Below are positions 1 to 64,000 of a DNA stretch of 64,000 nt, one piece after another. A program made the translations under genes and the position numbers. Below the pieces are notes generated by a model that saw nothing but the letters and a program-made list of their open reading frames with translations, had not been told where the DNA came from and did no database searches. Every line of letters begins with the position of its first letter. The stretch's first letter is position 1. Source of the stretch: Escherichia phage vB_EcoM_JNE01. The stretch lies in sequence record OR670491; one strand, given 5' to 3'.

Positions 1-111
1 ATTTTGTGTCGTGATACACTTTTTTATTCTTGTGTGTACTAGTGTAGTATATAAGTTAGTTCCGTTCTTTAAAGATTTGCACAGTAAAATCCGTGCTAAG
101 AAGAGAGGTGA

Positions 112-468
112 GTGATGTTATCATTTGCGGGTCAGATTATCGTCATGGGTATTACATTATTATTCACGGTGAATAGTATTATTTTACTCGGTAAGTACTT
201 TAATATTCGTCCAATGAATAAGTTGTACGATAAATTAAAAGAAGATAATCCATTCTATGTATTTTTATCTGTAGCAATTGGCATAGGTTTCGTTTTAGAA
301 GTTATTGGTTTAATTGCATCTGCACCAGTTGTGATTGTTTTTGGAATCTTTTCTGCTACATGTGGGTTATTATTATTTTCTTTAGGTTTAATACTCGACC
401 TATCGATTAACATTGGTATTAAACTTAAGAAGTTTCATGAAAAGCAACTTCAGAGGGACGTAAAATGA
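112..468 (+). CDS. hypothetical multi-pass membrane protein
   Basis: ORF with GAGG-type RBS upstream; translation dominated by several helix-length hydrophobic stretches; stop overlaps next start (ATGA). Confidence 0.5.
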   Translation: MMLSFAGQIIVMGITLLFTVNSIILLGKYFNIRPMNKLYDKLKEDNPFYVFLSVAIGIGFVLEVIGLIASAPVVIVFGIFSATCGLLLFSLGLILDLSINIGIKLKKFHEKQLQRDVK

Positions 469-836
469 CATACCGTGAGTACTTCCTAATTGTTCATATC
501 TTATTTTTTACCGTATTTTCTGTTGTAGGGTTGATGTATTATTTTTGTATTCAACCAGTGTACAATTACTTCCAGAAGACTACTGACACAAAGGTTGTTG
601 GTACAATTGCTGCAATCCTATTATATATGTTGAGTATCCTTCTTATAATTGGTGAAGTATTTTTTGATGGTATGCCAAATTCAGACGGTTTGCTTATTCA
701 TGAGTTTATAACTGGTTTATATTGTTTAGTTGGGTTTATTGCATTTGTGATTTTTACAGTGTACAGGATCTATAAATTTTTCATGTATCTTGGTGGACTA
801 CACGATTCTATTCGTCAGAAACGTATGGGGGAATAA
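465..836 (+). CDS. hypothetical multi-pass membrane protein
   Basis: ORF translationally coupled to upstream gene; several hydrophobic helix-length segments; followed by hairpin terminator. Confidence 0.5.
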   Translation: MTYREYFLIVHILFFTVFSVVGLMYYFCIQPVYNYFQKTTDTKVVGTIAAILLYMLSILLIIGEVFFDGMPNSDGLLIHEFITGLYCLVGFIAFVIFTVYRIYKFFMYLGGLHDSIRQKRMGE

Positions 837-842
837 AAAAAT

Positions 843-875
843 ACCCAGTACTGAAATATTGTACTGGGTATTTTA
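843..875 (+). terminator. rho-independent terminator (acccagtac...gtactgggt + T-run)
   Basis: perfect 9-bp inverted repeat followed by ATTTT, directly after stop of 465..836. Confidence 0.5.
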
Positions 876-882
876 ATATATT

Positions 883-1236
883 ATGAGATTCATTAAAGCG
901 AGCTTGCAATCACAAAAGAAATGTCAAATTATAATTGAACACGATGGTTTGAAGATATCAGCATTTGATTTTGGAAGTACTAAACATTCTATTTGCTTTA
1001 ATGATCCTGACAACGCAGTGTATTGTCTTATGATTAAAGTAAACTACTTACATAAACTTATAACAGAACCTGAATATTTTGTTCGTTTCAAAAACTTTAG
1101 TACAGAGAAACTACATGAGATATATAGAATTTCAATGATTGCATATACATTTTTGGGAATACCTGATGATGAACTTGATGTGACATTCCCTGGTGAAGCT
1201 AAAATACCTAAAGAATCATTTTGGAAGGATTTATGA
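883..1236 (+). CDS. hypothetical protein
   Basis: ORF from track; no recognisable motif; weak RBS. Confidence 0.4.
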   Translation: MRFIKASLQSQKKCQIIIEHDGLKISAFDFGSTKHSICFNDPDNAVYCLMIKVNYLHKLITEPEYFVRFKNFSTEKLHEIYRISMIAYTFLGIPDDELDVTFPGEAKIPKESFWKDL

Positions 1237-2088: not shown

Positions 2089-2115
2089 GCCAGTACAAAG
2101 TACTGGCTTTATTTT
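2089..2115. terminator. bidirectional rho-independent terminator between convergent gene blocks
   Basis: gccagtac-aaa-gtactggc hairpin flanked by A-run upstream and T-run downstream; lies between plus gene end 2085 and minus gene end 2114. Confidence 0.6.
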
Positions 2116-3319
2116 ATATACCACGACTGGGTATTTGATATAATTGGAATTTAGTGTAGTAATCAGAAACTGTTGTCCCGGCTGCTTGTGGGATATAGCC
2201 ACTCAAATACACATCCCCTTGATTATCCATATACACTGTTGTACATTCACTTGAACAGAATAACTCGGTGTTAGATACTTTAGGAGCATCAACTGGTGTT
2301 ACAAATGTAGTACTTGATGTTGTATTACCGCGACCGAGCTTACCATACGTGTTTATACCACACATATAAAGTGAATCGGCAGTTTTAACCGTAAGCCCAC
2401 CATATGTTAATGAATTTGATTTCATTTCCATATCATCTGATATTGGTAGAGTGGAGATAGTGGATAATACTGTCCAAGAATTAGCGGATGAACCATTACC
2501 CAAGTTACCATCGGACTGAATCCCACTTGCACGAACTGTATATGTATTATTCGTGTTGTGTTTATATACAACCCATGATGCACTCCCACCGAGTTCATAA
2601 TGTATAACAGTATTGTTGGCGAATGCACCCATTTGTGTCCATACTCTAATGTTAGTTGCATTATTACTTATACCAAGCGAACCCCATGTGTTTTGACCAG
2701 TGACCCAAAGTGTTTTATCAATTTTCTGCACAATCACTGCACTTGAACCTGTTTTAACACTATCAACATTCGTATTAATTGACGTAAAAGTTGATAATCT
2801 AGTGGTTGTGTTATTACCAAAATATCCCTGTGTATTCGTCCCCATTCCATATAGCGTACCATTTTCAAGTAAAACAAAAATACCCTCACCTACAAGTTGA
2901 ATGTCCTTAATTTGGGACAATTGTGTAGCATTGAATACTGATGTAAAATATGAAGTACAATCAGTATAAGTACTGGCAGTACTTAAACCTGCACCAATAG
3001 CTTTACCAACCCCACTGTAATAAAATTTATTATCTTCAGTTTGGATTAAATTAAAAGTACCTTGGGCTGTTCTGAAACGTTTTACATTTTGGTATATTAA
3101 AGTCCATTCTTTTACTTTCGCATTATGTACACCATTCCCGAATCCATAGTTTTGTGAAGTAGTTCCACCTATACCCATTAAGTCTCCATTTTTATATAAT
3201 AGTAAGAGTGCTGTTGCTGGAATTACTGACGCACTATAACCATTGTACATAAAGATTTCTTTCACTTCAGGAACTTTCATTTTATTAGCGTATTTAACCA
3301 TTCTTGCAAAAGGTAACAT
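2114..3319 (-). CDS. RCC1-like beta-propeller repeat protein, paralogue 1 of 9 (possible virion adhesin/fibre-type protein)
   Basis: 401-aa ORF; N-terminus MLPFARMVKYAN shared with array; G/N/S/T/Y-rich with GxNxxGxxG-type repeats; AGGAGG RBS. Confidence 0.7.
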   Translation of the reverse strand: MLPFARMVKYANKMKVPEVKEIFMYNGYSASVIPATALLLLYKNGDLMGIGGTTSQNYGFGNGVHNAKVKEWTLIYQNVKRFRTAQGTFNLIQTEDNKFYYSGVGKAIGAGLSTASTYTDCTSYFTSVFNATQLSQIKDIQLVGEGIFVLLENGTLYGMGTNTQGYFGNNTTTRLSTFTSINTNVDSVKTGSSAVIVQKIDKTLWVTGQNTWGSLGISNNATNIRVWTQMGAFANNTVIHYELGGSASWVVYKHNTNNTYTVRASGIQSDGNLGNGSSANSWTVLSTISTLPISDDMEMKSNSLTYGGLTVKTADSLYMCGINTYGKLGRGNTTSSTTFVTPVDAPKVSNTELFCSSECTTVYMDNQGDVYLSGYIPQAAGTTVSDYYTKFQLYQIPSRGI

Positions 3320-3396
3320 AAAATCCTCCTTTATTCATTATACTATATTTAGCCAAAAAGGAAAAGCCAGTACTTGAGTACTGGCATTATAAAGAA
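3320..3396 (-). promoter_or_regulatory. conserved inter-cassette junction: terminator hairpin, TATAAT-like element, AGGAGG RBS
   Basis: minus-strand reading: gccagtactcaagtactggc hairpin + T-run, then aaatatagtataatgaataaaggagg before ATG; near-identical copies between array genes. Confidence 0.55.
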
Positions 3397-4572
3397 TCAA
3401 ATTGTAGGAAGTAGGAATTCTTTCATAACAGATGAACTACTCGCACTGACATTATCTGGTGATTTCCCTGCGTAGTATAATTTATTATTAATGAACATAT
3501 ATAATGTTGCATCATTCCCTGCAACAAGAGAAACCTCTTTATTAAAAACAACACCACTAGGTAAAATTGCTTCAACGAATGAACCTGATTCGCGTGTGGT
3601 ATTATTTGCTAATTGACCATTGTTATTATAACCAGTACTATAAATTTTACCTGAACTATAATACACAAGCCCACGTGTACTAGTGTTTTCTATACGAAGG
3701 AATTCACTATCATCTGGAACTGAAGTTGATAAAGTTGCATTTAACTTATAAGCGGATGTTGTATTATTATTACCCAACTGACCATAACCTTGATATCCTA
3801 GTGTATACATAGGACATGATTCTGGTGTACCTTTAGTTATAACACCAAAATAATTCGAACTACAAAAAGCGTCTATAACTTCTGTAACAGGTGTACCCTT
3901 ATATTGAACCCAAGGGAATACATATGATTGTTGTTTGCCATTCCCTAAAGTACCAGAGCTTGTTGTTCCGGTACGCCATATTGTATCATCAAGTTTAATA
4001 ATCCAGTTAGCAGATGTTATAGATGAACAGAATTTTTTAACATTATCAATTAAGTATGTAAATTTATTATAATATGATGCAGTGTTTAGCCCAAACTTAG
4101 CACCAGTATTATCACCTAACAAATATAAACTATTATCAGTACCTAAAATGACAGCATAATCATAACCTACATATATCTCTTTTATTTTTGAAATACCAAA
4201 TTGTGTAAAATAGCTTGTACATTCAGTGAATGTTGTTACTGTATTTGTTGTATTATTACCTAACCATTTATCAAAACCACTAAAAAAGAATCTATCATCA
4301 TTTGTGCGTATTAGACAAAAAGCGTTCCCTGTACTACACCAGAAATCTTTAACATTGCTATATATTTTTGTCCATTCCTGTACCTGTGTCGTATTACCTA
4401 GACCAAAAATACCACCATTTTGAAGACCGATGGCCCATACTGAACCATTTTTATCAAGTAGCATTGTAGTTGTAAATGAGTATCCAGATGATGGTGTAAC
4501 CAATTTAACAAAATTTGGGATATATGGCACGACCTTATTTCCGTACTTAGCCATCCTTGCAAAAGGTAACAT
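3397..4572 (-). CDS. RCC1-like beta-propeller repeat protein, paralogue 2 of 9
   Basis: 391-aa ORF; N-terminus MLPFARMAKYGN; motifs such as GYNNNGQLANN and GYQGYGQLGNN. Confidence 0.7.
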   Translation of the reverse strand: MLPFARMAKYGNKVVPYIPNFVKLVTPSSGYSFTTTMLLDKNGSVWAIGLQNGGIFGLGNTTQVQEWTKIYSNVKDFWCSTGNAFCLIRTNDDRFFFSGFDKWLGNNTTNTVTTFTECTSYFTQFGISKIKEIYVGYDYAVILGTDNSLYLLGDNTGAKFGLNTASYYNKFTYLIDNVKKFCSSITSANWIIKLDDTIWRTGTTSSGTLGNGKQQSYVFPWVQYKGTPVTEVIDAFCSSNYFGVITKGTPESCPMYTLGYQGYGQLGNNNTTSAYKLNATLSTSVPDDSEFLRIENTSTRGLVYYSSGKIYSTGYNNNGQLANNTTRESGSFVEAILPSGVVFNKEVSLVAGNDATLYMFINNKLYYAGKSPDNVSASSSSVMKEFLLPTI

Positions 4573-4646
4573 AATTTCTCTCCTTTATTCATTATAATGT
4601 ATTTACCCAAAAAAAGAAATGCCAGTACTGGAGTACTGGCATTATA
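4573..4646 (-). promoter_or_regulatory. conserved inter-cassette junction (hairpin terminator + promoter-like element + RBS)
   Basis: gccagtactggagtactggc hairpin at about 4621-4640 and conserved junction sequence. Confidence 0.5.
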
Positions 4647-5990
4647 TTATTGTAAAGGTATTTCAGTTAAGGTGCTATATTGTGTTCCGTTATATATACC
4701 CCTCCAGTATAATTTACCTTCAGTACTAATAACTAATAAACCATATGTTGTAAACCCTAGAGTTCCTCCGACATACATAGCATCTTTTATTCTAATACCA
4801 ATGTCTTCATATGTAAACTCTGATACTTCACCAGCATTCCACGCTGGACTGTAATAATAATCAGTATAAACACCATGTGCTTTATATAGGGACGTCAATC
4901 CAGGTTCAAAAATTACAGTTCCGCAGTAGTTCATTCTTATTTTAGTACTGGATGAAGTTGGTATATTACCAAAAATATTATCTTTTAACCCAGTAGTTAG
5001 AACGTTGAAACCACCACCAATGGAGTTAACGTTATTCACGCCACTTAGACTCATACCAACGTTGTATCCCATGCAATACACACTACTGCTACCATTCCAG
5101 TAAGAAAAACCGCCGCCACGACCACAACGATATAATTGTGAATTTGAACAGTACATCATACCTTCGTTTGATGCGTCATAGTCGTCTGCTGTTCCAATTG
5201 TAGCTACAGTAGTCCAAGTTTTAATTACTTGGTTTGCACTAGCTGGTGTTTGTATGCCATATCTGATATTATATCCCTTACCGACTATGGTCCCATCTAA
5301 TAATTTGGCATACAGTACTGGTCTAGCCCCATTATAATAAACGTTATTATGTGACATATCAATTGTACTTCGTAATGAAACTGCTTTTTGTGTCAATTGG
5401 TTATCTTTAGTAAAAGATGAAAAGTAGTAATCTGCTGTGGAGTTGTTTATTAAACCCTGAAAGGACTGACCCATATACCAGACTTCTCCGTTTGAGTTCA
5501 ATGCTGCCAAAATACAACTATATTTGGATGTGTACCCAGTATTAGTGCCTGGACCTTTATCATACCCACCACTGAATACCATATCAACGACATCACCAAC
5601 GCTAGTGAAATATGACGAAACATCGATGAATCCAGATGTTAAAAATGGTGCAGTCGTCATCCCTGTATTTGTGAATATTCCATTTGCATATACACCACAA
5701 AAATTATACGAACCATCAATATCCTGTACTATGATACCATTAGAAAGTAACCAAAAGTTTTTTACATTTTTACGAACCAATTCAACACCTGCACCATTAT
5801 TAGGAGTTATTCCAAATGTAATTGCTTTAGTTGTGCCCATGCCATATAAATTCCCATTGGTTGCTAATATTGCACCAAGCCAGTTTCCACCTCCATTACT
5901 ATTACGACCCATACCAATGGAATCGAATTTCTTTACAGTTGGAGCTTCTACTGTATTCCCATAATCAAATAATCTAACAAAAGGTAACAT
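4647..5990 (-). CDS. RCC1-like beta-propeller repeat protein, paralogue 3 of 9
   Basis: 447-aa ORF; N-terminus MLPFVRLFDYGN; Gly/Asn/Thr/Tyr-rich repeats. Confidence 0.65.
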   Translation of the reverse strand: MLPFVRLFDYGNTVEAPTVKKFDSIGMGRNSNGGGNWLGAILATNGNLYGMGTTKAITFGITPNNGAGVELVRKNVKNFWLLSNGIIVQDIDGSYNFCGVYANGIFTNTGMTTAPFLTSGFIDVSSYFTSVGDVVDMVFSGGYDKGPGTNTGYTSKYSCILAALNSNGEVWYMGQSFQGLINNSTADYYFSSFTKDNQLTQKAVSLRSTIDMSHNNVYYNGARPVLYAKLLDGTIVGKGYNIRYGIQTPASANQVIKTWTTVATIGTADDYDASNEGMMYCSNSQLYRCGRGGGFSYWNGSSSVYCMGYNVGMSLSGVNNVNSIGGGFNVLTTGLKDNIFGNIPTSSSTKIRMNYCGTVIFEPGLTSLYKAHGVYTDYYYSPAWNAGEVSEFTYEDIGIRIKDAMYVGGTLGFTTYGLLVISTEGKLYWRGIYNGTQYSTLTEIPLQ

Positions 5991-6062
5991 ATATTCCTCC
6001 TTTATTCATTATACTATATTTAGCCAAAAAGGAAAAGCCAGTACTTGAGTACTGGCTTTATG
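5991..6062 (-). promoter_or_regulatory. conserved inter-cassette junction (hairpin terminator + promoter-like element + RBS)
   Basis: gccagtacttgagtactggc hairpin at about 6037-6056; junction identical to 3320-3396 over most of its length. Confidence 0.5.
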
Positions 6063-7214
6063 TCAATAAACATCCCAAGGTAATGGTGTCTTTCTAAACC
6101 CATACCTAGTTGCGTTCTGCCCATCTCCGGCTATGTATCTACCAGTACCACACTGATATAATTCAGTACTGCTACATATCGCACCACCAATAGTACCACT
6201 ACCCCACTGAGTTATATTGGAATATAATATTGGCAAATCACTACATTTAGTATATAATGCAACAGTAGCAGCACCACTCGCACCACCAAAAACACTTCGG
6301 TTCGAACCCGTGTAATATATACCATCTGGACTCATAAATGCGGAAGTATAAGTTGTACTACAATCCACTGGACTTCTTATATTATTAAGATCACTTGGGT
6401 ATACCCTAGCACCATATGTGTATACATTACCTGTAGTAGTAATACCATTACCTAACTGACCATTATTTTGTCCACCACATGTAACTAACGATCCACTACC
6501 AGAAACAATGGCAGTAGCATTATAAGAAGTACCTATAACAATAGAAGCTCCCGCCAATAGGTATGGGGCAGGAACTCCGGCTGCATTCCCCTGACCTAAT
6601 TCACCATTGACATTTCTTCCCCATCCGTATACAGAAGTGGTATCCAATTGGCATAGTACTGAACCATAACTAAACGTATATCGTATATCCTTCACTGCCG
6701 ATGGTAAACCACTAACTTTAGTTGCAACACTAATAACGCCAGAAACGCCTGTTACTCCAGCGTTCGCGTTCAGATTACGTCCATATGCATATAAAGAGCC
6801 ATCAGCAGTTTTAATATGCATCATGCCATCTGTGCAATATAATGTATCTATACTACCCACTGCAACCTCTCCCATACTGGACGTTATATCGTTCCACCCA
6901 AGCGTTGTAGTACTAGAAATTAAGTTATTTCCGGCGTAAAGTATTCTATTATCATTAGTAACTACTACTGTATAATTGGCAGTAACGCCAATTAATCTAA
7001 CTTTCTCGTATATCTTAGACCACATTCCTATTGAATTTGTGTTAGTATCCAGAAACCCCAACTGACCAGCGGTATTATATCCAATACCCCACACATCACC
7101 TTCACTATCCAATAACACTTCATGGGAAAAACCAATCTTAAAATCTTTTATCGTTGGTGTTTCTGGAACAGGTTTAATATTTCCGTACTTAACCATTCTA
7201 GCAAAAGGTAACAT
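6063..7214 (-). CDS. RCC1-like beta-propeller repeat protein, paralogue 4 of 9
   Basis: 383-aa ORF; N-terminus MLPFARMVKYGN; clear RCC1-type motifs WGIGYNTAGQLGF, GWGRNVNGELGQGN, CGGQNNGQLGNG. Confidence 0.75.
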   Translation of the reverse strand: MLPFARMVKYGNIKPVPETPTIKDFKIGFSHEVLLDSEGDVWGIGYNTAGQLGFLDTNTNSIGMWSKIYEKVRLIGVTANYTVVVTNDNRILYAGNNLISSTTTLGWNDITSSMGEVAVGSIDTLYCTDGMMHIKTADGSLYAYGRNLNANAGVTGVSGVISVATKVSGLPSAVKDIRYTFSYGSVLCQLDTTSVYGWGRNVNGELGQGNAAGVPAPYLLAGASIVIGTSYNATAIVSGSGSLVTCGGQNNGQLGNGITTTGNVYTYGARVYPSDLNNIRSPVDCSTTYTSAFMSPDGIYYTGSNRSVFGGASGAATVALYTKCSDLPILYSNITQWGSGTIGGAICSSTELYQCGTGRYIAGDGQNATRYGFRKTPLPWDVY

Positions 7215-7285
7215 AATTCCTCCTTTTATTTGTTATACTATATTTAATAAAAAAGAAAAGCCAGTATCAAGTACTGGCATTATTA
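7215..7285 (-). promoter_or_regulatory. conserved inter-cassette junction (hairpin terminator + promoter-like element + RBS)
   Basis: gccagtatcaagtactggc hairpin at about 7260-7278. Confidence 0.5.
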
Positions 7286-8476: not shown

Positions 8477-8553
8477 AACTAATTCTCCAAATTCAAATAA
8501 TTATAATGTATTTACAAAAAAAATACCAGCACATATTTCAGTACTGGTATCAT
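8477..8553 (-). promoter_or_regulatory. inter-cassette junction (degenerate hairpin + promoter-like element)
   Basis: accagcac...gtactggt imperfect hairpin at about 8524-8550; junction more diverged than the others. Confidence 0.4.
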
Positions 8554-52883: not shown

Positions 52884-52885
52884 GA

Positions 52886-52913: not shown

Positions 52914-52929
52914 ATTTTTAGAGGTACTT

Positions 52930-55460: not shown

Positions 55461-55513
55461 AATAGAAATAAAATCTTTTTGTAATAGTTTTATAAAAGAT
55501 CTGGAGTACTAAT

Positions 55514-56718: not shown

Positions 56719-57296
56719 ATAAAGATAAAAAACTACTGTCCCCAAGAAATAATCATTTAAAATTAGATACATTAGAAGAAGCTATCCAATGCGGTAAACA
56801 GTTAGTTGAACTAATCAATGCAATTGAAAATGATGAAATACCACAGATTCAACGCTGTGAAGAAGAATTTGAGGGTGATGGCGATCCTTACTATTACAAT
56901 TTTAGAAAGGAAGATGCTAGAACATCTGAATACGAAAGTGCACTATATACAGTACAAGGTGATTACGACACAAGTGAATACGATCCATGTTTTCAGGGTG
57001 GATTCCTCAGTACTAGTTTAAAATCAGATATAATTGTAGTTGACTGGTATGTACACAGAGATGGTAGTTTAGAGGATAATAATGAACTTCGTCTCGATGC
57101 ATCAGGTATTGAATTTACTGAAGAGTCATTCTTCATGCACAGTACATTGTACTCTCAGTACTGCACTGGTGTTATGGTACTGGCGAAGTACTTAAACCAA
57201 GAACTCAAAAAACCTATCTATCTGGACTTAGATATGCTAGAACAAGCATACAAGTACCACCTTCAAGCCAAATCAAAAAAGGCATCTAAAAAATAG
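56712..57296 (+). CDS. FQxS-motif family protein (FM.S variant)
   Basis: motif TEESFFMHSTLYSQY. Confidence 0.5.
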   Translation: MLDKDKKLLSPRNNHLKLDTLEEAIQCGKQLVELINAIENDEIPQIQRCEEEFEGDGDPYYYNFRKEDARTSEYESALYTVQGDYDTSEYDPCFQGGFLSTSLKSDIIVVDWYVHRDGSLEDNNELRLDASGIEFTEESFFMHSTLYSQYCTGVMVLAKYLNQELKKPIYLDLDMLEQAYKYHLQAKSKKASKK

Positions 57297-57326
57297 TTGA
57301 CCTTCCTCCTTCTCTTGTGATATAAT
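57297..57326 (+). promoter_or_regulatory. internal array promoter (TTGACC-N18-TATAAT)
   Basis: ttgaccttcctccttctcttgtgatataat. Confidence 0.45.
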
Positions 57327-57360
57327 TCTTTTAATATCTTTTTAATGGAGTTATATCACA

Positions 57361-57834
57361 ATGAGCACTCATTTTCTTTGCACTTATCAATCAGCATTTG
57401 CTTTAGCTCAAAAAATCGAATTCCTTTACCATACATTCATTTCCTTCGAGGATGATGAACACATCCAAGTAGGTTCAGAAAGACTTGATTTCAAGGAAAG
57501 TCATAACCAAATTATATATAAAAAATGTTTGTTATTCAGTGTAAATGAAAATTCAGTGAATATCAGGACAAATATAGACCCTTATGTTTGTTATTCCCCA
57601 ACAATAAAGAGATATAAATTATCTACTGCAAGGGGTTATTCAAATGATTATGAAGCTGTTGACATTTTCAGTGAAGAAGATTACTTCATGAATTTGTGTT
57701 TGTTCCCTGAACTGGACGTATATAATCTTACTATCATTTCATACTTCAAGTTAAAGGGCATGGGTTCATTCTATATGGATCTGGATTGCGTTAATGAATT
57801 GTATGAGCATTTTTCTGGAGTACATAATGTATAA
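57361..57834 (+). CDS. FQxS-motif family protein (variant)
   Basis: motif SEEDYFMNLCLFPELD. Confidence 0.5.
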   Translation: MSTHFLCTYQSAFALAQKIEFLYHTFISFEDDEHIQVGSERLDFKESHNQIIYKKCLLFSVNENSVNIRTNIDPYVCYSPTIKRYKLSTARGYSNDYEAVDIFSEEDYFMNLCLFPELDVYNLTIISYFKLKGMGSFYMDLDCVNELYEHFSGVHNV

Positions 57835-58315
57835 GAATGTAATGATGACCGACTACGATTCAGTACTGAAATTTGCAGAAATCGTAACCAAAATACACTT
57901 TGAAGCTTACACTGATAATCCATTCGGTGGTTTATTTTATAAGAAATTCGACTCATACGAACGACCAATCCTCGCTGATCTAAATTATGTAAATGATGAG
58001 AATGCAATGGAACGATATTGTGAGTACTTCAAAGATAGTGATTTCAGTTTAAAAAGTGCATATATGTCATACGCACCTGGAACTGATATATCCATTAATG
58101 ATGGCTATGATAAAGTCCTATACAAATCTGAAGATTTACCAAAGGATTATAGTGAGGATTCATATTTTCAGTACTTATGTATACATGATATCAATACTGT
58201 GAATGTATTATTCTTCTATACTATTCTTCGTAAGAAATATCAGTTGACTAAATGTTTCTTTTTGGATTTTGAATTAATGTCCGATGCAGTACTGGAGTAT
58301 CTCAATGCCGATTGA
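57827..58315 (+). CDS. FQxS-motif family protein
   Basis: motif SEDSYFQYLCIHDINTVNVLFFYTIL; ATG after GGAG chosen (track start 57794; 57842 also possible). Confidence 0.5.
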   Translation: MYKNVMMTDYDSVLKFAEIVTKIHFEAYTDNPFGGLFYKKFDSYERPILADLNYVNDENAMERYCEYFKDSDFSLKSAYMSYAPGTDISINDGYDKVLYKSEDLPKDYSEDSYFQYLCIHDINTVNVLFFYTILRKKYQLTKCFFLDFELMSDAVLEYLNAD

Positions 58316-58646
58316 AATCGAGTTCATGGTTGATTCGGATTATGATTGTTTTATTATCCAGACTAAGTACAAAGATGACTTGTACTTAGTTTATATTCAC
58401 GATAATTCACAGTTCTATATGCATAGAAAAGTATCCAAAACATACACACAAGAAAAGAAAATCAAAAACTATACCAAACTAAGTACAGAAGAACTATTCC
58501 AAATGAGTTGTTCTGACGACTATGATGTGCATTTGATAAAAGAATTACAATTACCGCTTCTTAAATTCCAAAAAGAATGTAATCCTGTATTTGCAAAGCA
58601 CTTTGGTATCCCGTGGGATTATACAACATTTATGTACGAAGGATAA
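58305..58646 (+). CDS. FQxS-motif family protein, short A-type
   Basis: motif STEELFQMSCSDDYD; ATG after GGAG chosen (track start 58284). Confidence 0.5.
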   Translation: MPIEIEFMVDSDYDCFIIQTKYKDDLYLVYIHDNSQFYMHRKVSKTYTQEKKIKNYTKLSTEELFQMSCSDDYDVHLIKELQLPLLKFQKECNPVFAKHFGIPWDYTTFMYEG

Positions 58647-58649
58647 GAT

Positions 58650-59045
58650 ATGAAAACAATGCATGTAATTTTACGTGTTGAAACTGCTTTACGTGTTGAT
58701 ACTTCTCTTAAATATGCCAATAATTCATATGATTCAGTAGTATATGAACGTTGGGTTAAGCTTGACAAGACGAACACTTTACGCTATATTTCTAATACAA
58801 ATAAATTCGATGTGAACTCCGAGAACGTTCCTAGGCTCGCTCACATGAGTTCTGAAGAGGTATTTCAGTACTCCTTAGTGCACAAGCATAGTGCTGATTT
58901 GAAGGTTCTGAAGGCCGTTCAGGAGGCTCTATTGGAGAATAACAGGACTCGTTACGTTACAATTGAGGTGGATGCACCGGATTATATGTTAGATGATGAC
59001 GAATTCTATGAGAAACATTTCCCTAAGAAACAATGGAGGGATTAA
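58650..59045 (+). CDS. FQxS-motif family protein
   Basis: motif SSEEVFQYSLVHKHS. Confidence 0.55.
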   Translation: MKTMHVILRVETALRVDTSLKYANNSYDSVVYERWVKLDKTNTLRYISNTNKFDVNSENVPRLAHMSSEEVFQYSLVHKHSADLKVLKAVQEALLENNRTRYVTIEVDAPDYMLDDDEFYEKHFPKKQWRD

Positions 59046-59513
59046 ATGCGAAAGTACAATGATGCTATGCGTTTCGCACGTGATAGTCTAAATGCACTCA
59101 CGTACCTTGTACTGAACGAAGATAAACTACCAAAAGAGTTTGACGTTCGTTATCCAGCCCGTAACGTTATGGTTACATGGCACGGTGCTTATAGTGTTAG
59201 TGTTTCGTCGGCAGGAGATCCATCACCTTATGTAGCTTCCATATTTGAAAAAGCCAGAACAAACTATGTGTACTTCGCTAAGAACACTAATACTGTTAAT
59301 TTCATCGCTAAAGACCGTAACTTGTGCAAGATGCAAGTACTGACAGAATTAAGTCCAGAGAATTTCTTTCAACAGAGTCTTCTTTATCCAGAAGATGCAG
59401 TACTTGCATTGTTTATGATTTCGTACTATAATTTGAACAGTACTATCGGTTCGTTCTCCTACGAGGTTGCTGACATGAAGCACTTCATTAAAACACTGAA
59501 GGGATTAAAATGA
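59046..59513 (+). CDS. FQxS-motif family protein
   Basis: motif SPENFFQQSLLYPEDAVLALFMISYY. Confidence 0.55.
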   Translation: MRKYNDAMRFARDSLNALTYLVLNEDKLPKEFDVRYPARNVMVTWHGAYSVSVSSAGDPSPYVASIFEKARTNYVYFAKNTNTVNFIAKDRNLCKMQVLTELSPENFFQQSLLYPEDAVLALFMISYYNLNSTIGSFSYEVADMKHFIKTLKGLK

Positions 59514-60055
59514 ATATTGAAGGTATAGATAAAATTGTCCAAATGTACAAGTTCTTATTATATGCTCGTAAGAATATGGAAGCACATAAAATTTGGTTTG
59601 ATGCACCTGATGATGAATATATGTTGATTAGAAATATCGCTGCGGGTACTGATTTTTATGGAAAGGGTGATGGACTAATATTTACAATTCGCCCTGAAGT
59701 TCAGGGTGATCATAACCGACGAAACCCCAATAGTGCTTCACATTACAAGCACATACTACGCGATGATAATTTCTTCATTAGCTCAAGTGAAAGTGATTTA
59801 TGTGATGATATTTTCATTAGTTATTTGGATGAACCTGTTATAATCAAAATGCCAAGTACTGAAGAAGAGGAATTTCAGTTCTCATTAATTCATGATGACA
59901 AGACTATGTTTATATATTATCTACAGAAAGCATTGAAAGGTATTATACCAAATGATGTATGGGTTGGTGGTTATTATGATAGAATCATAAACTACGATTT
60001 CAGTACTGTACTAAGTCTCATTAACACTGATAAGATGAAATATGGAAAATATTAA
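59510..60055 (+). CDS. FQxS-motif family protein
   Basis: motif TEEEEFQFSLIHDDK; ATGA coupling. Confidence 0.55.
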   Translation: MNIEGIDKIVQMYKFLLYARKNMEAHKIWFDAPDDEYMLIRNIAAGTDFYGKGDGLIFTIRPEVQGDHNRRNPNSASHYKHILRDDNFFISSSESDLCDDIFISYLDEPVIIKMPSTEEEEFQFSLIHDDKTMFIYYLQKALKGIIPNDVWVGGYYDRIINYDFSTVLSLINTDKMKYGKY

Positions 60056-60560
60056 AACACCTAAGCATATTATTAAAGTACTTGAATTCATGTTAACTAA
60101 AGTACAAAAAACAATAGAGAATGGTATTAAAAAATCTATATACGTTAATGGAAAAGATTCTCTACTTATTATCCATCCTGATGGTCAATGCACTTTGCAG
60201 TACAATACTGACCGTAAAATCACTATGTTAAATGAAAACCTTCAGTACGTAAGTGATAGTGTTTCAAGGATTATCATCAGGGGTGATACATTCTTCCTAT
60301 CTTCACCGAACTCAATGAAGTTGTATCCAGTCAACGATGTTATTGAATATGAGGATGCAGAAAAATATGATTTGACTGGTTTCAAGACCGAAGAAGGTCG
60401 CTTCATGTTAAGTACACTTCTTGATCAAGATGCAATGAACATCCTGGAAATTGATGCTGCTATCGGTCACTTAATCCCAGCTAATCAATACATTAGCTTA
60501 AGAACCAATGCCATGTACAGCGAAGCAATGCGTGCTATAAGACGTGATTTCAACATATAA
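60042..60560 (+). CDS. FQxS-motif family protein (FM.S variant)
   Basis: motif TEEGRFMLSTLLDQDAMNILEIDAAI; followed by terminator. Confidence 0.5.
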   Translation: MENIKTPKHIIKVLEFMLTKVQKTIENGIKKSIYVNGKDSLLIIHPDGQCTLQYNTDRKITMLNENLQYVSDSVSRIIIRGDTFFLSSPNSMKLYPVNDVIEYEDAEKYDLTGFKTEEGRFMLSTLLDQDAMNILEIDAAIGHLIPANQYISLRTNAMYSEAMRAIRRDFNI

Positions 60561-60581
60561 GACCCTTATGGGTCTTTTTGT
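60560..60581 (+). terminator. rho-independent terminator
   Basis: agaccc-ttat-gggtct followed by TTTTTG. Confidence 0.6.
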
Positions 60582-60590
60582 GTTTAGGGC

Positions 60591-60619
60591 TTTACAGAGC
60601 GTTCTAGACGTGTTATAAT
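60591..60619 (+). promoter_or_regulatory. internal array promoter (TTTACA-N17-TATAAT)
   Basis: tttacagagcgttctagacgtgttataat, then AGAGG RBS. Confidence 0.5.
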
Positions 60620-60649
60620 GCGTATATATTAATTGTTTAAGAGGCTATA

Positions 60650-61189
60650 ATGGAAAAAATACTCATAGTTCATGACATTATAAAAGAGATGGCAACATTA
60701 CATGAAAGCGATAAAGTTGTTTCTAATCCCACTTCAATAACAAACTGCTTTTTAATGAGAAAGATGCACTACGGTGTGAACTTACTACTCAAGGCAGAAT
60801 CGGCAACGTACTTCACCTTTTCAGTGTATAGTAGTTCATTCCAAATAGATGATAGTACTGAGACAAAAATCCTGATAGATGGCTCTAACAAATGGGTGTT
60901 TATTGAAAGTGCTGAAAACTGTATCCCGTGCTTAGAGGCTGACTACGCAGATATTAAACTTGATCTAATTGAAAGTACTGACATTGAGAGTACATACTTT
61001 CAGATGTGTACTTTACATGATACTTCTATTGTAGATGCATTAGTACTTGAATTCTTACTTCGTGATTGGATTAAGAATAGTTCACTAGGAAGATTCTACG
61101 TTGGTTATGTCAATAAAATGCGTGATTTAACTGTTCAAGAGTTGAAAGAACTTCTGGACGCATTAAGGAAATTAAATGCTGAATCGTGA
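60650..61189 (+). CDS. FQxS-motif family protein
   Basis: motif DIESTYFQMCTLHDTSIVDALVLEFLL. Confidence 0.55.
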   Translation: MEKILIVHDIIKEMATLHESDKVVSNPTSITNCFLMRKMHYGVNLLLKAESATYFTFSVYSSSFQIDDSTETKILIDGSNKWVFIESAENCIPCLEADYADIKLDLIESTDIESTYFQMCTLHDTSIVDALVLEFLLRDWIKNSSLGRFYVGYVNKMRDLTVQELKELLDALRKLNAES

Positions 61190-61745
61190 TATACTCTGTA
61201 AAATTAGTTCTGCACTTCATAAAGTTGGTACTAAGTACGATATCCCTGGTGAGAAAGATAAGTGGATTGATATTGAGGATGTGTACCGTATCGTAATCAG
61301 TCCTAGTACTGAATACACGTATAACATCTGTAGTATCAATACCATTAACTACAACCCAAGAATGGGTCTTCAACACATCATCATTGCATCCTATGTAGGT
61401 ACTAGCAGAGTTTATACTGATAACATTGGATACTATAGTCCGCATATGTTTTCTATACGTTGTGCAAGGGACAACCAAATAGCAGCGGTTGAATTGTATA
61501 ATGAGACTGAGTACGCGAATGAAGTGATGGATATCCCAGTTGATCTTCAAAACTTAAAAGAGCGAGAATCTTCATGGTTCCAGTACTCTTTACTTGACAA
61601 CTACAAGATTTATGATACTATGTGCTTAATGTACGATGTGAACAAGATTTTACCTAAAGGGGAAATCTTAATGTACGAGGCATTTGTTAATCTCAAAGAT
61701 GAAGAACTCCAAAAAATTTACGAGGAATTAATCAAACATGTCTAA
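61176..61745 (+). CDS. FQxS-motif family protein
   Basis: motif ERESSWFQYSLLDNYK. Confidence 0.55.
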   Translation: MLNRDILCKISSALHKVGTKYDIPGEKDKWIDIEDVYRIVISPSTEYTYNICSINTINYNPRMGLQHIIIASYVGTSRVYTDNIGYYSPHMFSIRCARDNQIAAVELYNETEYANEVMDIPVDLQNLKERESSWFQYSLLDNYKIYDTMCLMYDVNKILPKGEILMYEAFVNLKDEELQKIYEELIKHV

Positions 61746-62316
61746 CATCATTGATGCTATTCAAAATCCAAATCACAAAATTCTGTGCAATATCATTGCT
61801 GATATGAAGCAGCATTTGATTAAAATGAAAAACACAGATACACCTGTGAACTTCAACAAACAATTACAGCACGGGTTGAACTTGAGCTTAAAGTTGAAGC
61901 AGAAGATGACATATGATAATTACATCTTGAACGCAGGTGGTCCGCGTGCTATTGTATTTGTCAATAACGGTTTCAGTACTGATGCGGTGCATGATATCAA
62001 TGTTGACCATTACATCAATAATAGAAATTTCGTTGTTATTGATGCACCATGTGATAAAGTTGTACTTACTACGGATACAGGATACCGTAAAGTTAAAATT
62101 CTTCGCAGTACGGATGACGTACAAGGTAAAGTCTTTCAGATGATTACCGTTGAAGATACCGACAGTATTGATGCATTATTACTGGTATCAGCTTTACACG
62201 AACTAATTATTGGTAGTGCAATGAAATTGATTATTGATATTGATACCGTCAATAAATTATCAATTGACTCTCTACAGAAAGTACACGAAACTGTACAGGG
62301 ATTACTTAATGAATAA
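61738..62316 (+). CDS. FQxS-motif family protein
   Basis: motif VQGKVFQMITVEDTDSIDALLLVSAL. Confidence 0.5.
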   Translation: MSNIIDAIQNPNHKILCNIIADMKQHLIKMKNTDTPVNFNKQLQHGLNLSLKLKQKMTYDNYILNAGGPRAIVFVNNGFSTDAVHDINVDHYINNRNFVVIDAPCDKVVLTTDTGYRKVKILRSTDDVQGKVFQMITVEDTDSIDALLLVSALHELIIGSAMKLIIDIDTVNKLSIDSLQKVHETVQGLLNE

Positions 62317-62857
62317 TTTTCAAAATATGTACGACATGTGTAAGATTATGTCAAATTTCAGTACTAAGATTAAATCGGCTCCAGTAGCGGAAGTTCACAT
62401 GTCCGAACGCTACTACACGTTCCGAGTATCCAGTACTGGTGACAGTATTCGACTGTTCTTAAATGACCGACAGCAATTGTTTGATGTAGTCATTGTAGAC
62501 CATACTACAAAGGGAAAATATGCATACAATATGTATGCAAAAAATCGTTGGTTAGTAATTCGTAATACAATGCAACGATTACGTGCAGCTACAGATATAA
62601 ACAGTACTGGTGATGATTACGATATTACTAACATTTTAGATGAATCTGTTTTTAATTTTGAAATAGATTTATCTGTTGATGATCCATTCCTGCGTGACCT
62701 TTACAAATTACACGGGTGCGTTGTTCGTGGTACACAAGATATCAAAGCTGTGTCAATTGAGGTATCCAGAATTCATGAACACAATGTGAACCTGGAATCA
62801 TTGATTGATAAGATGAATACCAATTTCTTCTTTTGGAAGTGTAAGGATGAACTATGA
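62309..62857 (+). CDS. hypothetical protein (weak family resemblance)
   Basis: internal ATG MNNFQNMYD overlapping upstream stop; track ORF starts at 62234. Confidence 0.4.
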   Translation: MNNFQNMYDMCKIMSNFSTKIKSAPVAEVHMSERYYTFRVSSTGDSIRLFLNDRQQLFDVVIVDHTTKGKYAYNMYAKNRWLVIRNTMQRLRAATDINSTGDDYDITNILDESVFNFEIDLSVDDPFLRDLYKLHGCVVRGTQDIKAVSIEVSRIHEHNVNLESLIDKMNTNFFFWKCKDEL

Positions 62858-63306
62858 CACGCGATGAGTGTATCCTATTATGTAAAGTTGTAGAGAAGAT
62901 CTTAAGTGATCCTTCTCTTGAAAATAGTAAAGTACTGAAAAATAAAACACGCAGGTCGTGGACTGATATTGCACTTGTAAGTGATGATATCAATGTTGGA
63001 ACTTTGTGGCCTTCGAGAACATATACACTAACAAGTGCAATACACGAAGAAAGTGTAGATTATGTAGGTGAGAAAACTTTCATCTACGGTAGTACTACAC
63101 CAGTAATGCATATCATTGATTTAGTTGATATGGATGACTTTGATTCGTTATATCTTCAGTACTCTTCGACATATAATACTGAATTAATTTATCAATTGGT
63201 TCTTATTTCGAGGATTAGTTATTTGATTAAAAATAACAATGATTATTCTTCGCTTTCACTTACGTTCGAATTACTACCTTATGCAGAGGAATTCTTAAAT
63301 GAGTAA
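62854..63306 (+). CDS. FQxS-motif family protein (variant LQYS)
   Basis: motif FDSLYLQYSSTYNTELIYQLVLI; ATGA coupling. Confidence 0.5.
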   Translation: MTRDECILLCKVVEKILSDPSLENSKVLKNKTRRSWTDIALVSDDINVGTLWPSRTYTLTSAIHEESVDYVGEKTFIYGSTTPVMHIIDLVDMDDFDSLYLQYSSTYNTELIYQLVLISRISYLIKNNNDYSSLSLTFELLPYAEEFLNE

Positions 63307-63784
63307 TATCAGTGCACAAGATTACGTTAAGATTTACAATTTCATGAATAGCTTCTTTGGTCCTGAAACTAAAGAAGTACAACTAACTAAGAACTTACAG
63401 TTAGGTGTATACAGTAATACTTATGTAGGTATTAAGAATACATCAAGTACCACTGAATTTAATACAGATATGTTTCGTATTATCCGTAATACACATAATC
63501 GTGAAATTAGTACATTAACACCTAATACAATGATAGCTGAACCTCCGACGAAAAATATCAATGTTATCACATTCAATTCAGATAATGTCGTTGAGATTCC
63601 AGAATTTACTTCATTTGATGAATTACAGTTTCAGTTGAGTACTCTATATAAAAATGAAAGTATCCTGACATTCTTATCATATCTTAATAGTATTAATAAT
63701 AATTATGTGGTTTATTTTGGTTCAATCCAGTCTATTAGTATTACACAGGAATTAATTGATTACATTGATAGTCTGGAGGAATAA
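63299..63784 (+). CDS. FQxS-motif family protein
   Basis: motif SFDELQFQLSTLYKNESILTFLSYL. Confidence 0.55.
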   Translation: MSNISAQDYVKIYNFMNSFFGPETKEVQLTKNLQLGVYSNTYVGIKNTSSTTEFNTDMFRIIRNTHNREISTLTPNTMIAEPPTKNINVITFNSDNVVEIPEFTSFDELQFQLSTLYKNESILTFLSYLNSINNNYVVYFGSIQSISITQELIDYIDSLEE

Positions 63785-64000
63785 TGGAACTCAATTTCAG
63801 TACTTTACTAAAGTTCATCCATCCAGTACTTTGGGTACTAAAGAATAGAAAATCAGAACATGATACTGTTCAGTACAGTAATGATTACTACAGTATATTG
63901 TGCGGGGTTTATGCTGATGGTGGTTCCATTATTATGGAGTACAAAGAAGCTAGTGCAAGGGGAACCAATCTAAGAATCGAATTACGTCTACCACTGTACG
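63784..64000 (+). CDS. hypothetical protein, 3'-truncated by window end
   Basis: ORF MELNFSTLLKF... open to the end of the window; array continues beyond. Confidence 0.4.
   Translation, partial: MELNFSTLLKFIHPVLWVLKNRKSEHDTVQYSNDYYSILCGVYADGGSIIMEYKEASARGTNLRIELRLPLY

Follow-up and report, generated by a model that had tools for sequence, protein, structure and literature searches.

Why should one palindromic hexamer, AGTACT, be so abundant in a phage genome, and what reads it? The question is raised by a stretch of 64,000 nucleotides from Escherichia phage vB_EcoM_JNE01 (the window). It belongs to an Asteriusvirus, a 121Q/PBECO4-like jumbo coliphage, and takes in a terminal repeat of ~21 kb. 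AGTACT is the most frequent hexamer of the window: it is present 307 times in the 64 kb, whereas 100 dinucleotide-preserving shuffles give 22.3 ± 4.8 (maximum 34), and it stands at 14x its zero-order expectation. An earlier note had claimed a window-wide over-representation, unusual against a backdrop of palindrome depletion. Both points hold: other palindromes are strongly avoided alongside the AGTACT excess, most GC-containing 6-bp palindromes having 0 copies in the window. The density is not uniform, and two stretches lack any copy. In the complete genome of 121Q, AGTACT is again the top hexamer (903 copies versus 118 expected) and every 10-kb bin is enriched. The excess over chance in the window phage and its enterobacterial relatives is ~8-14x.

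As the earlier note had also stated, AGTACT lies inside coding regions, which hold 199 sites (3.8/kb), or two thirds of the total, the remaining 108 being in non-coding DNA (9.5/kb). Coding sites of the window occupy all three codon phases (AGT ACT 83, xAG TAC Txx 59, xxA GTA CTx 57), and neither codon-aware null reproduces their number: synonymous shuffling gives 65.6 ± 6.3 and codon permutation 28 ± 5, against 200 observed. Ser-Thr is coded as AGT-ACT 361 times versus 101 expected, and the xAG TAC Txx context occurs 143 times versus 14 expected, with TAC usage of 80% within it compared to 31% overall. The peptides themselves are affected. Ser-Thr dipeptides number 694 (490 expected; 473 for Thr-Ser) and Val-Leu dipeptides 778 (558 expected; 550 for Leu-Val), an inflation of ~40%. 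Selection for AGTACT is thus independent of reading frame and strong enough to alter proteins.

The preference extends beyond the hexamer. The 307 sites (positions 1-64,000, unstranded) favour the form [C>A>T]AGTACT[G>A>T]; C precedes the hexamer (-1) in 134 of 307 and G follows it (+6) in the same number, and CAGTACTG is the commonest octamer context in the window (61 copies). In the 747 sites that lie within genes of 121Q, C(-1) reaches 44% and G(+6) 46%, compared to 10% for G(-1) and 6% for C(+6); this two-fold symmetric flank preference is found in coding and non-coding sites alike. The sites are under purifying selection. In comparison with 121Q, AGTACT was conserved at 83% in CDS, where other hexamers reach 58% (p=2e-4), and at 88% versus 62% in non-coding DNA (p=4e-7), and in comparison with Turkey5 at 94% versus 85% (p=0.014).

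The highest density is found in the direct terminal repeat, predicted at 17,757-38,970 (plus strand) with the physical left end at ~17,757. Position 1 of phage fEgEco12 aligns with window position 17,757 and the end of its repeat (20,993) with ~38,970; the termini behind this placement were fixed by experiment (PMC13070987). The repeat holds 141 sites, 6.65/kb overall and 12.3/kb in non-coding DNA. Small early genes and the early promoters of the sigma70 type also lie here. At the genome end lies a largely non-coding island (17,440-19,522, unstranded) with 21 sites in 17,757-19,522 and repeats of the form ATTCAGTACTGAAT(g/a)ATAGTACT at 13-bp spacing. A 14-bp palindrome said to be repeated through this island is indeed present, as three exact copies of ATTCAGTACTGAAT (starts 19,297, 19,350 and 19,416) and two of the nine one-mismatch copies in the window.

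An array of ~26-33 sigma70 promoters of consensus type, with TTGACA or TTGCAA set 16-17 bp from TATAAT, spans 19,961-37,672 on the plus strand. Relative to the first -10 base, AGTACT starts at -7/-8 in 16 promoters, at -27 in eight and at -17 in three. The early promoter at 22,637-22,669 (plus strand) has both main slots filled, AGTAC-TTGCAA on the -35 side (slot B) and AGTACTG-TATAAT on the -10 side (slot A), 20 bp apart, and the same layout recurs at 23,422/23,442, 26,985/27,005 and 30,138/30,158. The contexts ..AGTACTGTATAAT.. and ..AGTACTGGCATAAT.. singled out by the earlier note proved real on positional check. The promoter role it assigned to AGTACT stands in so far as the word sits in fixed slots by the -10 element, but such slots account for only ~10% of sites (at most ~93 of 903 in 121Q), and consensus promoters without AGTACT, such as those at 21,336 and 31,735, are equally good. 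Likewise, the claim that AGTACT supplies an extended -10 TG applies to five of the 16 slot-A promoters; in the main class the TG directly adjoins TATAAT rather than taking the canonical TGn register. Given the few sites in slots, the good promoters without them and the TG register, AGTACT at promoters looks like an overlaid operator rather than a core promoter element.

Two stretches beside the terminal repeat lack the full palindrome. The smaller (2.7 kb; 38,844-41,582, unstranded) starts at the repeat boundary and contains TGTACT six times and AGTACA not at all; the syntenic region of 121Q (155,501-159,568), whose genes are diverged homologues, has 0 AGTACT, 0 AGTAC[ACG] and 6 [CGT]GTACT. 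In the larger (4.9 kb; 44,381-49,322, plus strand) the density of GTAC is normal (13/kb), and AGTACA (29), AGTACC (10) and AGTACG (3) all point one way, the reverse complement TGTACT occurring once. These variants occur in every codon phase as well as outside coding DNA, and the pattern is kept in Turkey5 and in the syntenic 121Q island (161,799-169,383; 41 AGTAC[ACG], 0 [CGT]GTACT), although the proteins of this island are only 27-37% identical between the window phage and 121Q. The exclusion islands are syntenic across genomes despite island proteins of only 27-50% identity, and AGTAC[ACG] in them is ~7x enriched and single-oriented.

The AGTACT enrichment is a trait of one clade, the RaK2/121Q-like jumbo phages of enterobacteria. 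It lies at ~6-8x in the Klebsiella phage Muenster and the Yersinia phage fHe-Yen9-04, and the hosts of enriched phages are Escherichia, Salmonella, Klebsiella, Yersinia and those of a capsid-related Cronobacter/Erwinia/Serratia group. More than 25 distant relatives show ~1x, and Pseudomonas phage Paride has 0 copies versus 14 expected.

An excess kept by selection inside genes points to a protein that reads AGTACT along the chromosome, and its restriction to one clade makes a phage-encoded reader plausible. The suggestion that AGTACT is a recognition site for a phage-encoded DNA-binding or DNA-modifying activity is supported at the DNA level by frame-independent selection, symmetric flanks, purifying selection and avoidance of other palindromes; it found no counterpart among the window proteins, in which no such protein, and no HTH, methylase or nuclease domain, was recognisable. 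No ParB-, TetR- or KorB-like reader was found, none of the annotated 121Q nucleases is type-II-like, and the searchable literature yielded no binding, methylation or ScaI-digestion data for these phages.

In our preferred reading, (C)AGTACT(G) may well be a positively selected double-stranded DNA word of a clade-specific reader, serving both as promoter operator and as genome-wide mark. The phage itself would most likely encode this reader, a DNA-binding protein of two-fold symmetry that might work alongside, or by means of, site-specific methylation. In the terminal repeat, where ~30 early promoters are of the host-sigma70 type, AGTACT in fixed slots overlapping the -35/-10 spacer would be an operator, its likeliest purpose being the shut-off or timing of immediate-early transcription. 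The remaining ~90% of copies, spread evenly through genes at 2-5 per kb, could form a mark or loading array read by the same protein for chromosome organisation, self-marking or protection, and the two conserved regions by the terminal repeat would have to lack the full palindrome, the oriented half-word AGTAC[A/C/G] standing there instead. SPO1 TF1 and phi29 p6 are phage proteins that bind along the phage genome and shut off strong early promoters in its terminal region. They would match this reading functionally, but TF1 recognises hmU-DNA and p6 bendability, neither a defined palindrome, and no homologue of either was identified here. Against the preferred reading, a simple homodimer-operator model does not account for an oriented half-site at full density in the islands, and ~900 sites are far above any classical operator system.

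The closest analogue appears to be cyanobacterial HIP1 (GCGATCGC), which, with its alternate palindromes, is likewise short and hyper-abundant in coding and non-coding DNA. In certain related lineages a different palindrome takes the place of HIP1, whose features also include orphan methyltransferases and single-nucleotide deviants biased to outer positions (PMC4390886). By this resemblance, an orphan methyltransferase could target AGTACT or its GTAC/AGTAC core while methylation-dependent short-patch repair converts near-miss words, abundance being largely a by-product and not a function of each site. We regard such a drive as unlikely. It would fit the ~10x abundance of TTCGAA in place of AGTACT in one distant relative, the enrichment of only AGTACA/TGTACT and AGTACC/GGTACT among neighbour words in the window, and the methyltransferases of the clade: a PF05869 (Dam-family) adenine enzyme with orthologues in all four AGTACT-rich genera and a C5 enzyme in three. 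The latter was not found in the AGTACT-rich Eneladusvirus and appears to be of DNMT3 type, a minimal enzyme whose recognition domain is minimal too. The neighbour-word depletion expected from repair drive was not found in the window counts, the deamination products AGTATT (1.44x) and AATACT (1.17x) showing no depletion. Fixed promoter positions also speak against a drive, as do the AGTACT-free islands persisting in the same genome, which a genome-wide drive would fill. Single sites are conserved well above background; for HIP1 too, selection was argued from the conservation of sites within ORFs and between them (PMC5861425). AGTACT further differs from HIP1 in belonging to a virulent phage lineage rather than a cellular chromosome, in being a 6-8 bp, AT-rich word enriched 8-14x (15-300x for HIP1), in its promoter positions and terminator stems, in its conserved exclusion islands with an oriented half-word, and in having only a candidate cognate methyltransferase. 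The Dam/GATC-SeqA-MutH system, and methylation control of P1 pac, offer another dense palindrome (~4/kb for GATC in E. coli, ~2.6/kb for AGTACT) that overlaps promoter elements, and the phage has a gene for a Dam-family methyltransferase. GATC clusters at oriC and pac, AGTACT at the genome end; GATC shows no strong excess in E. coli and is under-represented in this phage (0.6-0.7x), and AGTACT methylation is putative.

It is improbable that a phage enzyme cutting with two-fold symmetry, such as a T4-like type II topoisomerase or a nicking/processing endonuclease, prefers AGTACT, although cutting as A|GTAC|T would leave a 5' stagger of 4 nt, as type IIA enzymes typically do. Spread sites would then allow frequent decatenation or processing, and the islands would be free of double-strand-cleavable palindromes, keeping oriented single-strand sites only. 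The palindrome with its central 4-bp core, the even spacing without relation to genes, and half-sites that would fit action on one strand are compatible with this, and 121Q has genes for topoisomerase II subunits and for several nucleases. The reasoning, however, is purely geometric, and no sequence evidence points to specificity. PA5oct-like relatives have the same T4-like core but zero AGTACT sites, and fixed promoter slots are not accounted for.

Equally doubtful is a host protein, conserved across Enterobacterales though not in Pseudomonas, that the phage recruits or titrates via AGTACT. Enrichment follows enterobacterial hosts and the Pseudomonas relative lacks the site, but host range is confounded with phage phylogeny, and we know of no E. 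coli factor other than SlmA with an AGTACT-type site. SlmA-SBS, Noc-NBS, ParB-parS and KorB-OB of plasmid RK2 are palindromic protein-binding words spread over a replicon; SBS and NBS are excluded from Ter, and KorB sites lie at promoters as global operators. AGTACT shares this dispersal, with exclusion from a region or placement at promoters, but those arrays comprise tens of 12-16 bp sites and AGTACT ~900 sites of 6-8 bp. AGTACT is found within the SlmA site GTGAGTACTCAC (SBS as defined in PMC3020112). SlmA itself is excluded: the SBS consensus GTRAGYRCTYAC is absent from the window and from 348 kb of 121Q, a single SlmA half-site occurs in only 20 of 903 sites, and C is preferred at -1, where a purine is required.

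An ordinary by-product, in which a promoter/terminator cassette was copied with paralogous early genes and supplemented by codon and amino-acid bias, is very unlikely. In the terminal repeat and in the RCC1 array, promoters, leaders and terminators are clearly modules that recur, and many early genes are paralogous, phrog_4148 alone having 16 members. The promoter-slot count and the codon-aware nulls, which coding sites in all phases exceed 3-7x, nevertheless largely refute it. Enrichment also extends to genes for capsid, replication and tail, as well as to other genera, whose sites have few promoter contexts, and island paralogues encode the same peptide without AGTACT that those outside encode with it. 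Codon bias and a promoter-only origin, like SlmA and repair drive, were tested and are disfavoured.

Just as improbable is AGUACU as a processing, stability or pairing motif in transcripts. In its favour, a palindrome appears in RNA whichever strand is transcribed, AGTACT pairs form terminator hairpins and the larger-island variants are oriented to the sense strand. Against it, the flank preference is symmetric on both sides, sites lie upstream of transcription starts in promoter spacers and show no bias along genes, the smaller island has the opposite orientation with its genes on the same strand, and no Rfam family matched. Abundant short words that bias peptides and terminate transcription as inverted pairs are also known from Pasteurellaceae and Neisseriaceae, as the uptake sequences USS/DUS. 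AGTACT resembles them in all three respects, but USS/DUS are non-palindromic, 9-12 bp long and serve competence, and a virulent phage has no uptake step. The terminator stems described in the earlier note are genuine: at 3,369-3,382 (minus strand) two AGTACT copies form an intrinsic terminator stem, GCCAGTACTnnAGTACTGGC followed by a T-run. Equivalent stems lie at 4,624-4,637, 6,040-6,053, 9,788-9,801 and 11,040-11,052, one after each RCC1-repeat paralog, the five copies having RNAfold energies of -9 to -16 kcal/mol.

AGTACT is the commonest hexamer in the window, where its 307 copies exceed the zero-order expectation 14-fold and compare with 22.3 ± 4.8 in dinucleotide-preserving shuffles, bearing out the window-wide over-representation claimed in the earlier note. 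Its preferred extended form is the octamer CAGTACTG (61 copies), and C at −1 and G at +6 are each found at 134 of the 307 sites. Coding sequence holds 199 sites (3.8/kb) and non-coding DNA 108 (9.5/kb); the copies reported inside genes are thus real, and they occupy all three codon phases (AGT ACT 83, xAG TAC Txx 59, xxA GTA CTx 57). The 14-mer ATTCAGTACTGAAT, described as repeated through the non-coding island, has three exact copies there and nine near-exact copies across the window. Reproduction of the AGTACT frequency by codon-aware null models had been proposed as the refutation. A synonymous-codon shuffle, which preserves every protein and the codon usage of each gene, gave 65.6 ± 6.3 copies and a codon permutation 28 ± 5, against 200 observed in coding sequence; both fall far below the real count, and the proposed refutation therefore fails. 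Together with codon-pair tests, these shuffles rule out codon or amino-acid bias as the source of the word.

By megablast, the window belongs to the genus Asteriusvirus, the 121Q/PBECO4-like jumbo coliphages of ~350 kb, and is mosaic, with 40–64 kb closest to phage Turkey5. In the complete reference genome of 121Q, which we assembled from seven pieces (348,532 bp), AGTACT is again the top hexamer (903 copies against 118 expected). All 10-kb bins of this genome are enriched, with densities running from 1.1–2/kb in the replication and structural modules up to 6.5/kb in the terminal repeat.

Selection for AGTACT is strong enough to reshape proteins. The 747 coding sites of 121Q share the two-fold symmetric flank preference of the non-coding sites (C at −1 in 44%, G at +6 in 46%, G at −1 in 10% and C at +6 in 6%). 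Ser-Thr dipeptides number 694 in 121Q against 490 expected (Thr-Ser, 473) and Val-Leu dipeptides 778 against 558 (Leu-Val, 550). Within Ser-Thr, AGT-ACT is used 361 times where 101 are expected, while the xAG TAC Txx arrangement occurs 143 times against 14, with TAC making up 80% of its Tyr codons compared to 31% overall. Individual sites are also under purifying selection. Between the window and 121Q, 83% of coding sites are unchanged, compared with 58% of other hexamers overall (p = 2e-4), as are 88% of non-coding sites against 62% (p = 4e-7); relative to Turkey5 the figures are 94% and 85% (p = 0.014).

The enrichment is specific to a clade. Around the capsid gene, AGTACT stands at 3–6.5x in every relative whose capsid is at least 89% identical, at 2.4x at 72% identity and at about 1x in over 25 distant relatives. 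It is abundant in Klebsiella phage Muenster (Alcyoneusvirus; 82 against 14 expected) and in Yersinia phage fHe-Yen9-04 (Eneladusvirus; 37 against 7, and 129 against 16 in a second region), and completely avoided in Pseudomonas phage Paride (PA5oct-like; 0 against 14 expected). Avoidance of the kind shown by a ScaI-type restriction site is not seen in the AGTACT-rich clade, where the word is enriched 8–14x. Short palindromes are expected to disappear from phage genomes, and many have done so here, yet AGTACT has been driven to about 900 copies at a cost in protein sequence. About 25 GC-containing palindromic hexamers have zero copies in the window. GCGC has no copy in the window or in the 348,532 bp of 121Q (estimated zero-order expectations ~66 and ~290), nor in 41 kb of Muenster or 49 kb of fHe-Yen9-04; in Paride it occurs at the expected frequency (31). 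In one distant metagenomic relative (L030, IMGVR_UViG_3300044959_000303; capsid 65% identical), ~21 kb around the capsid gene contain TTCGAA 68 times and ATCGAT 25 times, against 7.1 expected for each, and lack TTTAAA, ATTAAT, CTTAAG, GTTAAC, CTATAG and other TA-rich palindromes. TTCGAA may be an alternate iterated palindrome in L030, and two further distant relatives provide weaker cases, again from about 21 kb per genome.

The window opens with small genes (1–2.1 kb) and a minus-strand array of RCC1-repeat paralogues (2.1–13.4 kb), followed by small plus-strand genes, a largely non-coding island at 17.4–19.5 kb and, to its right, ~120 small plus-strand genes. In the related phage fEgEco12, whose ends were determined by PhageTerm and restriction digests, the direct terminal repeat measures 20,993 bp (PMC13070987). 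The first base of fEgEco12 aligns to window position 17,757 and the end of its repeat to about 38,970; this places the physical genome end at the non-coding island and makes 17.8–39.0 kb the terminal repeat with the immediate-early genes.

This terminal repeat contains about 26–33 promoters with near-perfect sigma70 elements, composed of TTGACA or TTGCAA, a 16–17 bp spacer and TATAAT, in which AGTACT takes fixed slots. Numbered from the first base of the −10 hexamer, these are −7/−8, directly 5′ of the −10 (16 promoters), −27, where the last T of the word is the first T of TTGCAA (8 promoters), and −17, as TTGAC-AGTACT (3 promoters). Promoters using both −7/−8 and −27 carry copies 20 bp apart. 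The earlier note had placed AGTACT just 5′ of the −10 in many promoters, which is correct (AGTACTG-TATAAT or AGTACTGgCATAAT contexts), and had assigned it the TG of an extended −10, which holds in part. An extended −10 has TG at −15/−14, one base 5′ of the −10 hexamer; this canonical TGn register occurs solely in five AGTACTGnNATAAT-type promoters (e.g. AGTACTGgCATAAT), the TG abutting TATAAT in the other 11 of the 16, so that the element is not general to the group. Several equally strong consensus promoters, such as those at 21336 and 31735, lack the word. With the TG mostly off-register and strong promoters doing without AGTACT, the hexamer behaves like an operator laid over host-type promoters, not like a core element. 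Of the 903 sites in 121Q, moreover, no more than about 93 (~10%) have promoter contexts, and a promoter-only or extended −10 explanation is rejected on these grounds.

Downstream of the early promoters, 17 of 26 in the terminal repeat have a conserved G-rich leader hairpin of 8–10 bp (GGGGAGAA-loop-TTCTCCCC; −12 to −17 kcal/mol) about 12–14 nt past the −10, preceded by a conserved start region, gtttACATC. These hairpins lie within 19984–37730 (e.g. 22682–22701, 27030–27049 and 35221–35239) and may be 5′ stabilisers or processing sites; no Rfam family matches within the window, leader hairpin included.

Since AGTACT is self-complementary, two copies 7–9 bp apart form a hairpin, and such pairs are deployed in bidirectional terminators. 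Five copies of GCCAGTACTnnAGTACTGGC followed by a T-run, each 3′ of an RCC1 paralogue, substantiate the terminator stems described previously. The array itself comprises nine tandem paralogues of ~360–450 aa ('regulator of chromosome condensation'-like; 2114–13382, minus strand), with AGTACT in six intergenic spacers and, in five of these, the stereotyped AGTACT-pair terminator.

Right of the terminal repeat, most of the window is made up of phrog_4148-type paralogues (16 members of 150–200 aa sharing an F-Q-[YL]-S-[TL]-L motif, 44891–63784). Two stretches of this side are free of AGTACT, one at 38,844–41,582, beginning at the repeat boundary, and one at 44,381–49,322; at the mean density of the word, a gap of the larger island's length has a probability of about 5e-11. 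GTAC itself has a normal density in the larger island (13/kb), present as AGTACA (29), AGTACC (10) and AGTACG (3), with the reverse complement TGTACT found once. All three codon phases and non-coding DNA contain these variants, which keep the canonical flanks (CAGTACAG); the F-Q-Y-S-T-L peptide of the paralogues is written CAG TAC AGT ACC inside the island and CAG TAC AGT ACT outside it. Simple site destruction under codon constraint is rejected, given variants in all phases and in a single orientation. In the smaller stretch the asymmetry is reversed (TGTACT 6, AGTACA 0).

The island pattern is common to the window and Turkey5, and it recurs in 121Q, where the syntenic larger island (161.8–169.4 kb) has 0 AGTACT, 41 AGTAC[ACG] and 0 [CGT]GTACT, and the syntenic smaller stretch (155.5–159.6 kb) has 0, 0 and 6, respectively. 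On the side of the larger island the variants are oriented 42:1 in the window and 41:0 in 121Q, and on the opposite side 0:6. Island proteins share only 27–50% identity between the two phages, so the shared state is ancient and maintained, and a recent horizontal transfer of an AGTACT-free island is rejected. Enrichment of the oriented half-word in the 121Q island is about 7x, matching that of the palindrome elsewhere, and suggests that selection may act on the oriented pentamer AGTAC, mostly present as two overlapping copies. The pattern also suggests that these zones specifically bar the full palindrome. The mirror-image orientation around 41.6–44.4 kb would fit a polar process diverging from the centre, with small counts on the left-hand side. 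Polar motifs such as Chi and KOPS are non-palindromic words with a strong strand bias relative to a fixed point, whereas AGTACT itself is palindromic and only its island variants are oriented.

We interpret AGTACT as a double-stranded DNA recognition word of a clade-specific reader, a protein that would bind and/or modify DNA, control early promoters and serve to mark or organise the chromosome as a whole, and we regard this interpretation as evenly poised between right and wrong. It draws on a symmetric preference spanning 8 bp inside and outside genes, positive selection that is independent of reading frame and measurably costly to proteins, purifying selection per site, operator-like fixed positions in early promoters, clade specificity and conserved exclusion zones. 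The reader would act on early promoters through AGTACT, and the same protein would mark or organise the entire phage chromosome. Among 133 window proteins scanned against Pfam and PHROG, none had a DNA-binding, HTH, methylase or nuclease domain, matches being limited to DksA/TraR, GNAT, ParE-like, RCC1 and DUFs. 121Q encodes a 173-aa Dam-family adenine methyltransferase (gene 417, PF05869), with orthologues in four of the four AGTACT-rich genera, and a 286-aa C5-cytosine methyltransferase (gene 91, PF00145), with orthologues in Asterius-, Mimas/CBB- and Alcyoneusvirus. The latter aligns end to end with the DNMT3 catalytic domain, which implies a very small recognition module, and no homologue was found in the AGTACT-rich Eneladusvirus (syntenic 49 kb and database list); on both counts we lean against it as the probable driver of AGTACT.

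The main rival is a drive by methylation and repair like that considered for HIP1, the highly iterated palindrome of cyanobacteria, where orphan methyltransferases and an outer-position bias of one-nucleotide deviants are likewise found (PMC4390886). In the window, AGTACA stands at 3.8x, TGTACT at 3.3x, AGTACC at 3.3x and GGTACT at 2.0x, compared to 0.75–2.1x for inner-position variants. However, neighbour words are not depleted, site-free islands persist and AGTACT sites are conserved, the last an argument also made for HIP1 (PMC5861425), and such a drive is disfavoured. Its Vsr-like form is rejected, since it should deplete AGTATT/AATACT or other neighbours and no such depletion is seen. Cleavage by an enzyme at AGTACT is less likely. 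As for candidate readers, none of the annotated 121Q nucleases is type-II-like. fEgEco12 DNA was cut as predicted by ten enzymes other than ScaI (PMC13070987), so it is not globally hypermodified. Binding of the word by a host factor is also less likely. The 12-bp site of SlmA, GTRAGYRCTYAC, needs G1, T2, a purine at position 3, A4 and G5 (PMC3020112), and the site GTGAGTACTCAC contains AGTACT. Full SlmA sites number zero in the window and in 348 kb of 121Q, one half-site is present at only 20 of the 903 121Q AGTACT sites, and at position 3 C is preferred and G avoided; with no full site and the required G1, T2 and purine-3 not found, SlmA is rejected as the reader. Cassette amplification and an RNA-level signal are less likely readings. 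The sites are evenly scattered, with no along-gene bias, modulo-3 signal or helical periodicity except for the 20-bp promoter pairs.

The phenomenon belongs with the hyper-abundant selected palindromes, as HIP1 does. Like HIP1, AGTACT is a short perfect palindrome many-fold enriched genome-wide (307 against 22; 903 against 118), in all frames and non-coding DNA beyond codon or peptide bias (83/59/57; 66 ± 6 against 200), conserved between related genomes above background (121Q, Turkey5), with one-nucleotide deviants biased to the first and last positions. Some related lineages carry an alternate palindrome instead of HIP1, for which L030 with TTCGAA, at ~21 kb per genome, may be a parallel. 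A HIP1-type palindrome would also have an orphan methyltransferase specific for the word or its core, a role for which the Dam-family (PF05869) enzyme and, less probably, the C5 (PF00145) enzyme would be candidates. New with respect to HIP1 are the virulent phage lineage, the demonstrable promoter and terminator deployment, the extreme avoidance of other palindromes alongside, and the conserved palindrome-free islands with an oriented half-word. The searchable literature yielded no paper linking AGTACT to these phages; the CBB paper describes RpoD-like, TGAAACG-type and late promoters without it.

About 900 selected copies imply a strong DNA-reading function in jumbo phages under development for therapy. 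The question of what hyper-abundant palindromes do dates from the description of HIP1, and defined early promoters, known ends and islands that act as built-in negative controls make it directly testable in a virulent E. coli phage. AGTACT is also a strong lineage signature when such phages are binned or assigned to hosts, flags about 30 sigma70 promoter-leader cassettes that are both strong and compact, and must be respected when such genomes are recoded or engineered. A broader and more doubtful proposal is that enterobacterial RaK2/121Q-like jumbo phages may keep AGTAC, mostly as AGTACT, as a sequence-encoded self-mark; phage proteins dedicated to reading it would organise, regulate or protect the 350-kb chromosome. 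The conserved palindrome-free zones with opposed half-words would then lie on either side of a functional centre beside the terminal repeat, such as an origin or a region controlling entry or packaging. If true, HIP1 and architecture-imparting sequences would have in this self-mark a viral counterpart, carried by a tractable E. coli phage where the reader can be found.

The inferred genome end at 17,757 (...ATTCAGTACTGATATGTCACTA/AGTAGGCAGAGG..., the slash marking the end; region 17739–17760) falls inside an AGTACT cluster, with one copy 13 nt upstream, and this cluster might belong to the terminase recognition region. The immediate-early genes include a DksA/TraR-type C4 zinc-finger protein (29462–29719) and a GNAT acetyltransferase (29783–30139), and one window protein has a ParE-like toxin domain; all three may be host-RNAP or host-takeover factors. 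The Chi octamer of E. coli, GCTGGTGG, has 11 plus-strand copies in the window (18247, 18358, 24645, 28851, 29361, 30311, 31559, 33913, 35810, 37387 and 37611) and two on the minus strand (18346 and 24583). Every copy lies inside the inferred terminal repeat, where about 0.2 per strand is the zero-order expectation, and a comparable cluster is present in 121Q at 136–154 kb. This orientation would stop RecBCD entering from the right-hand repeat copy.
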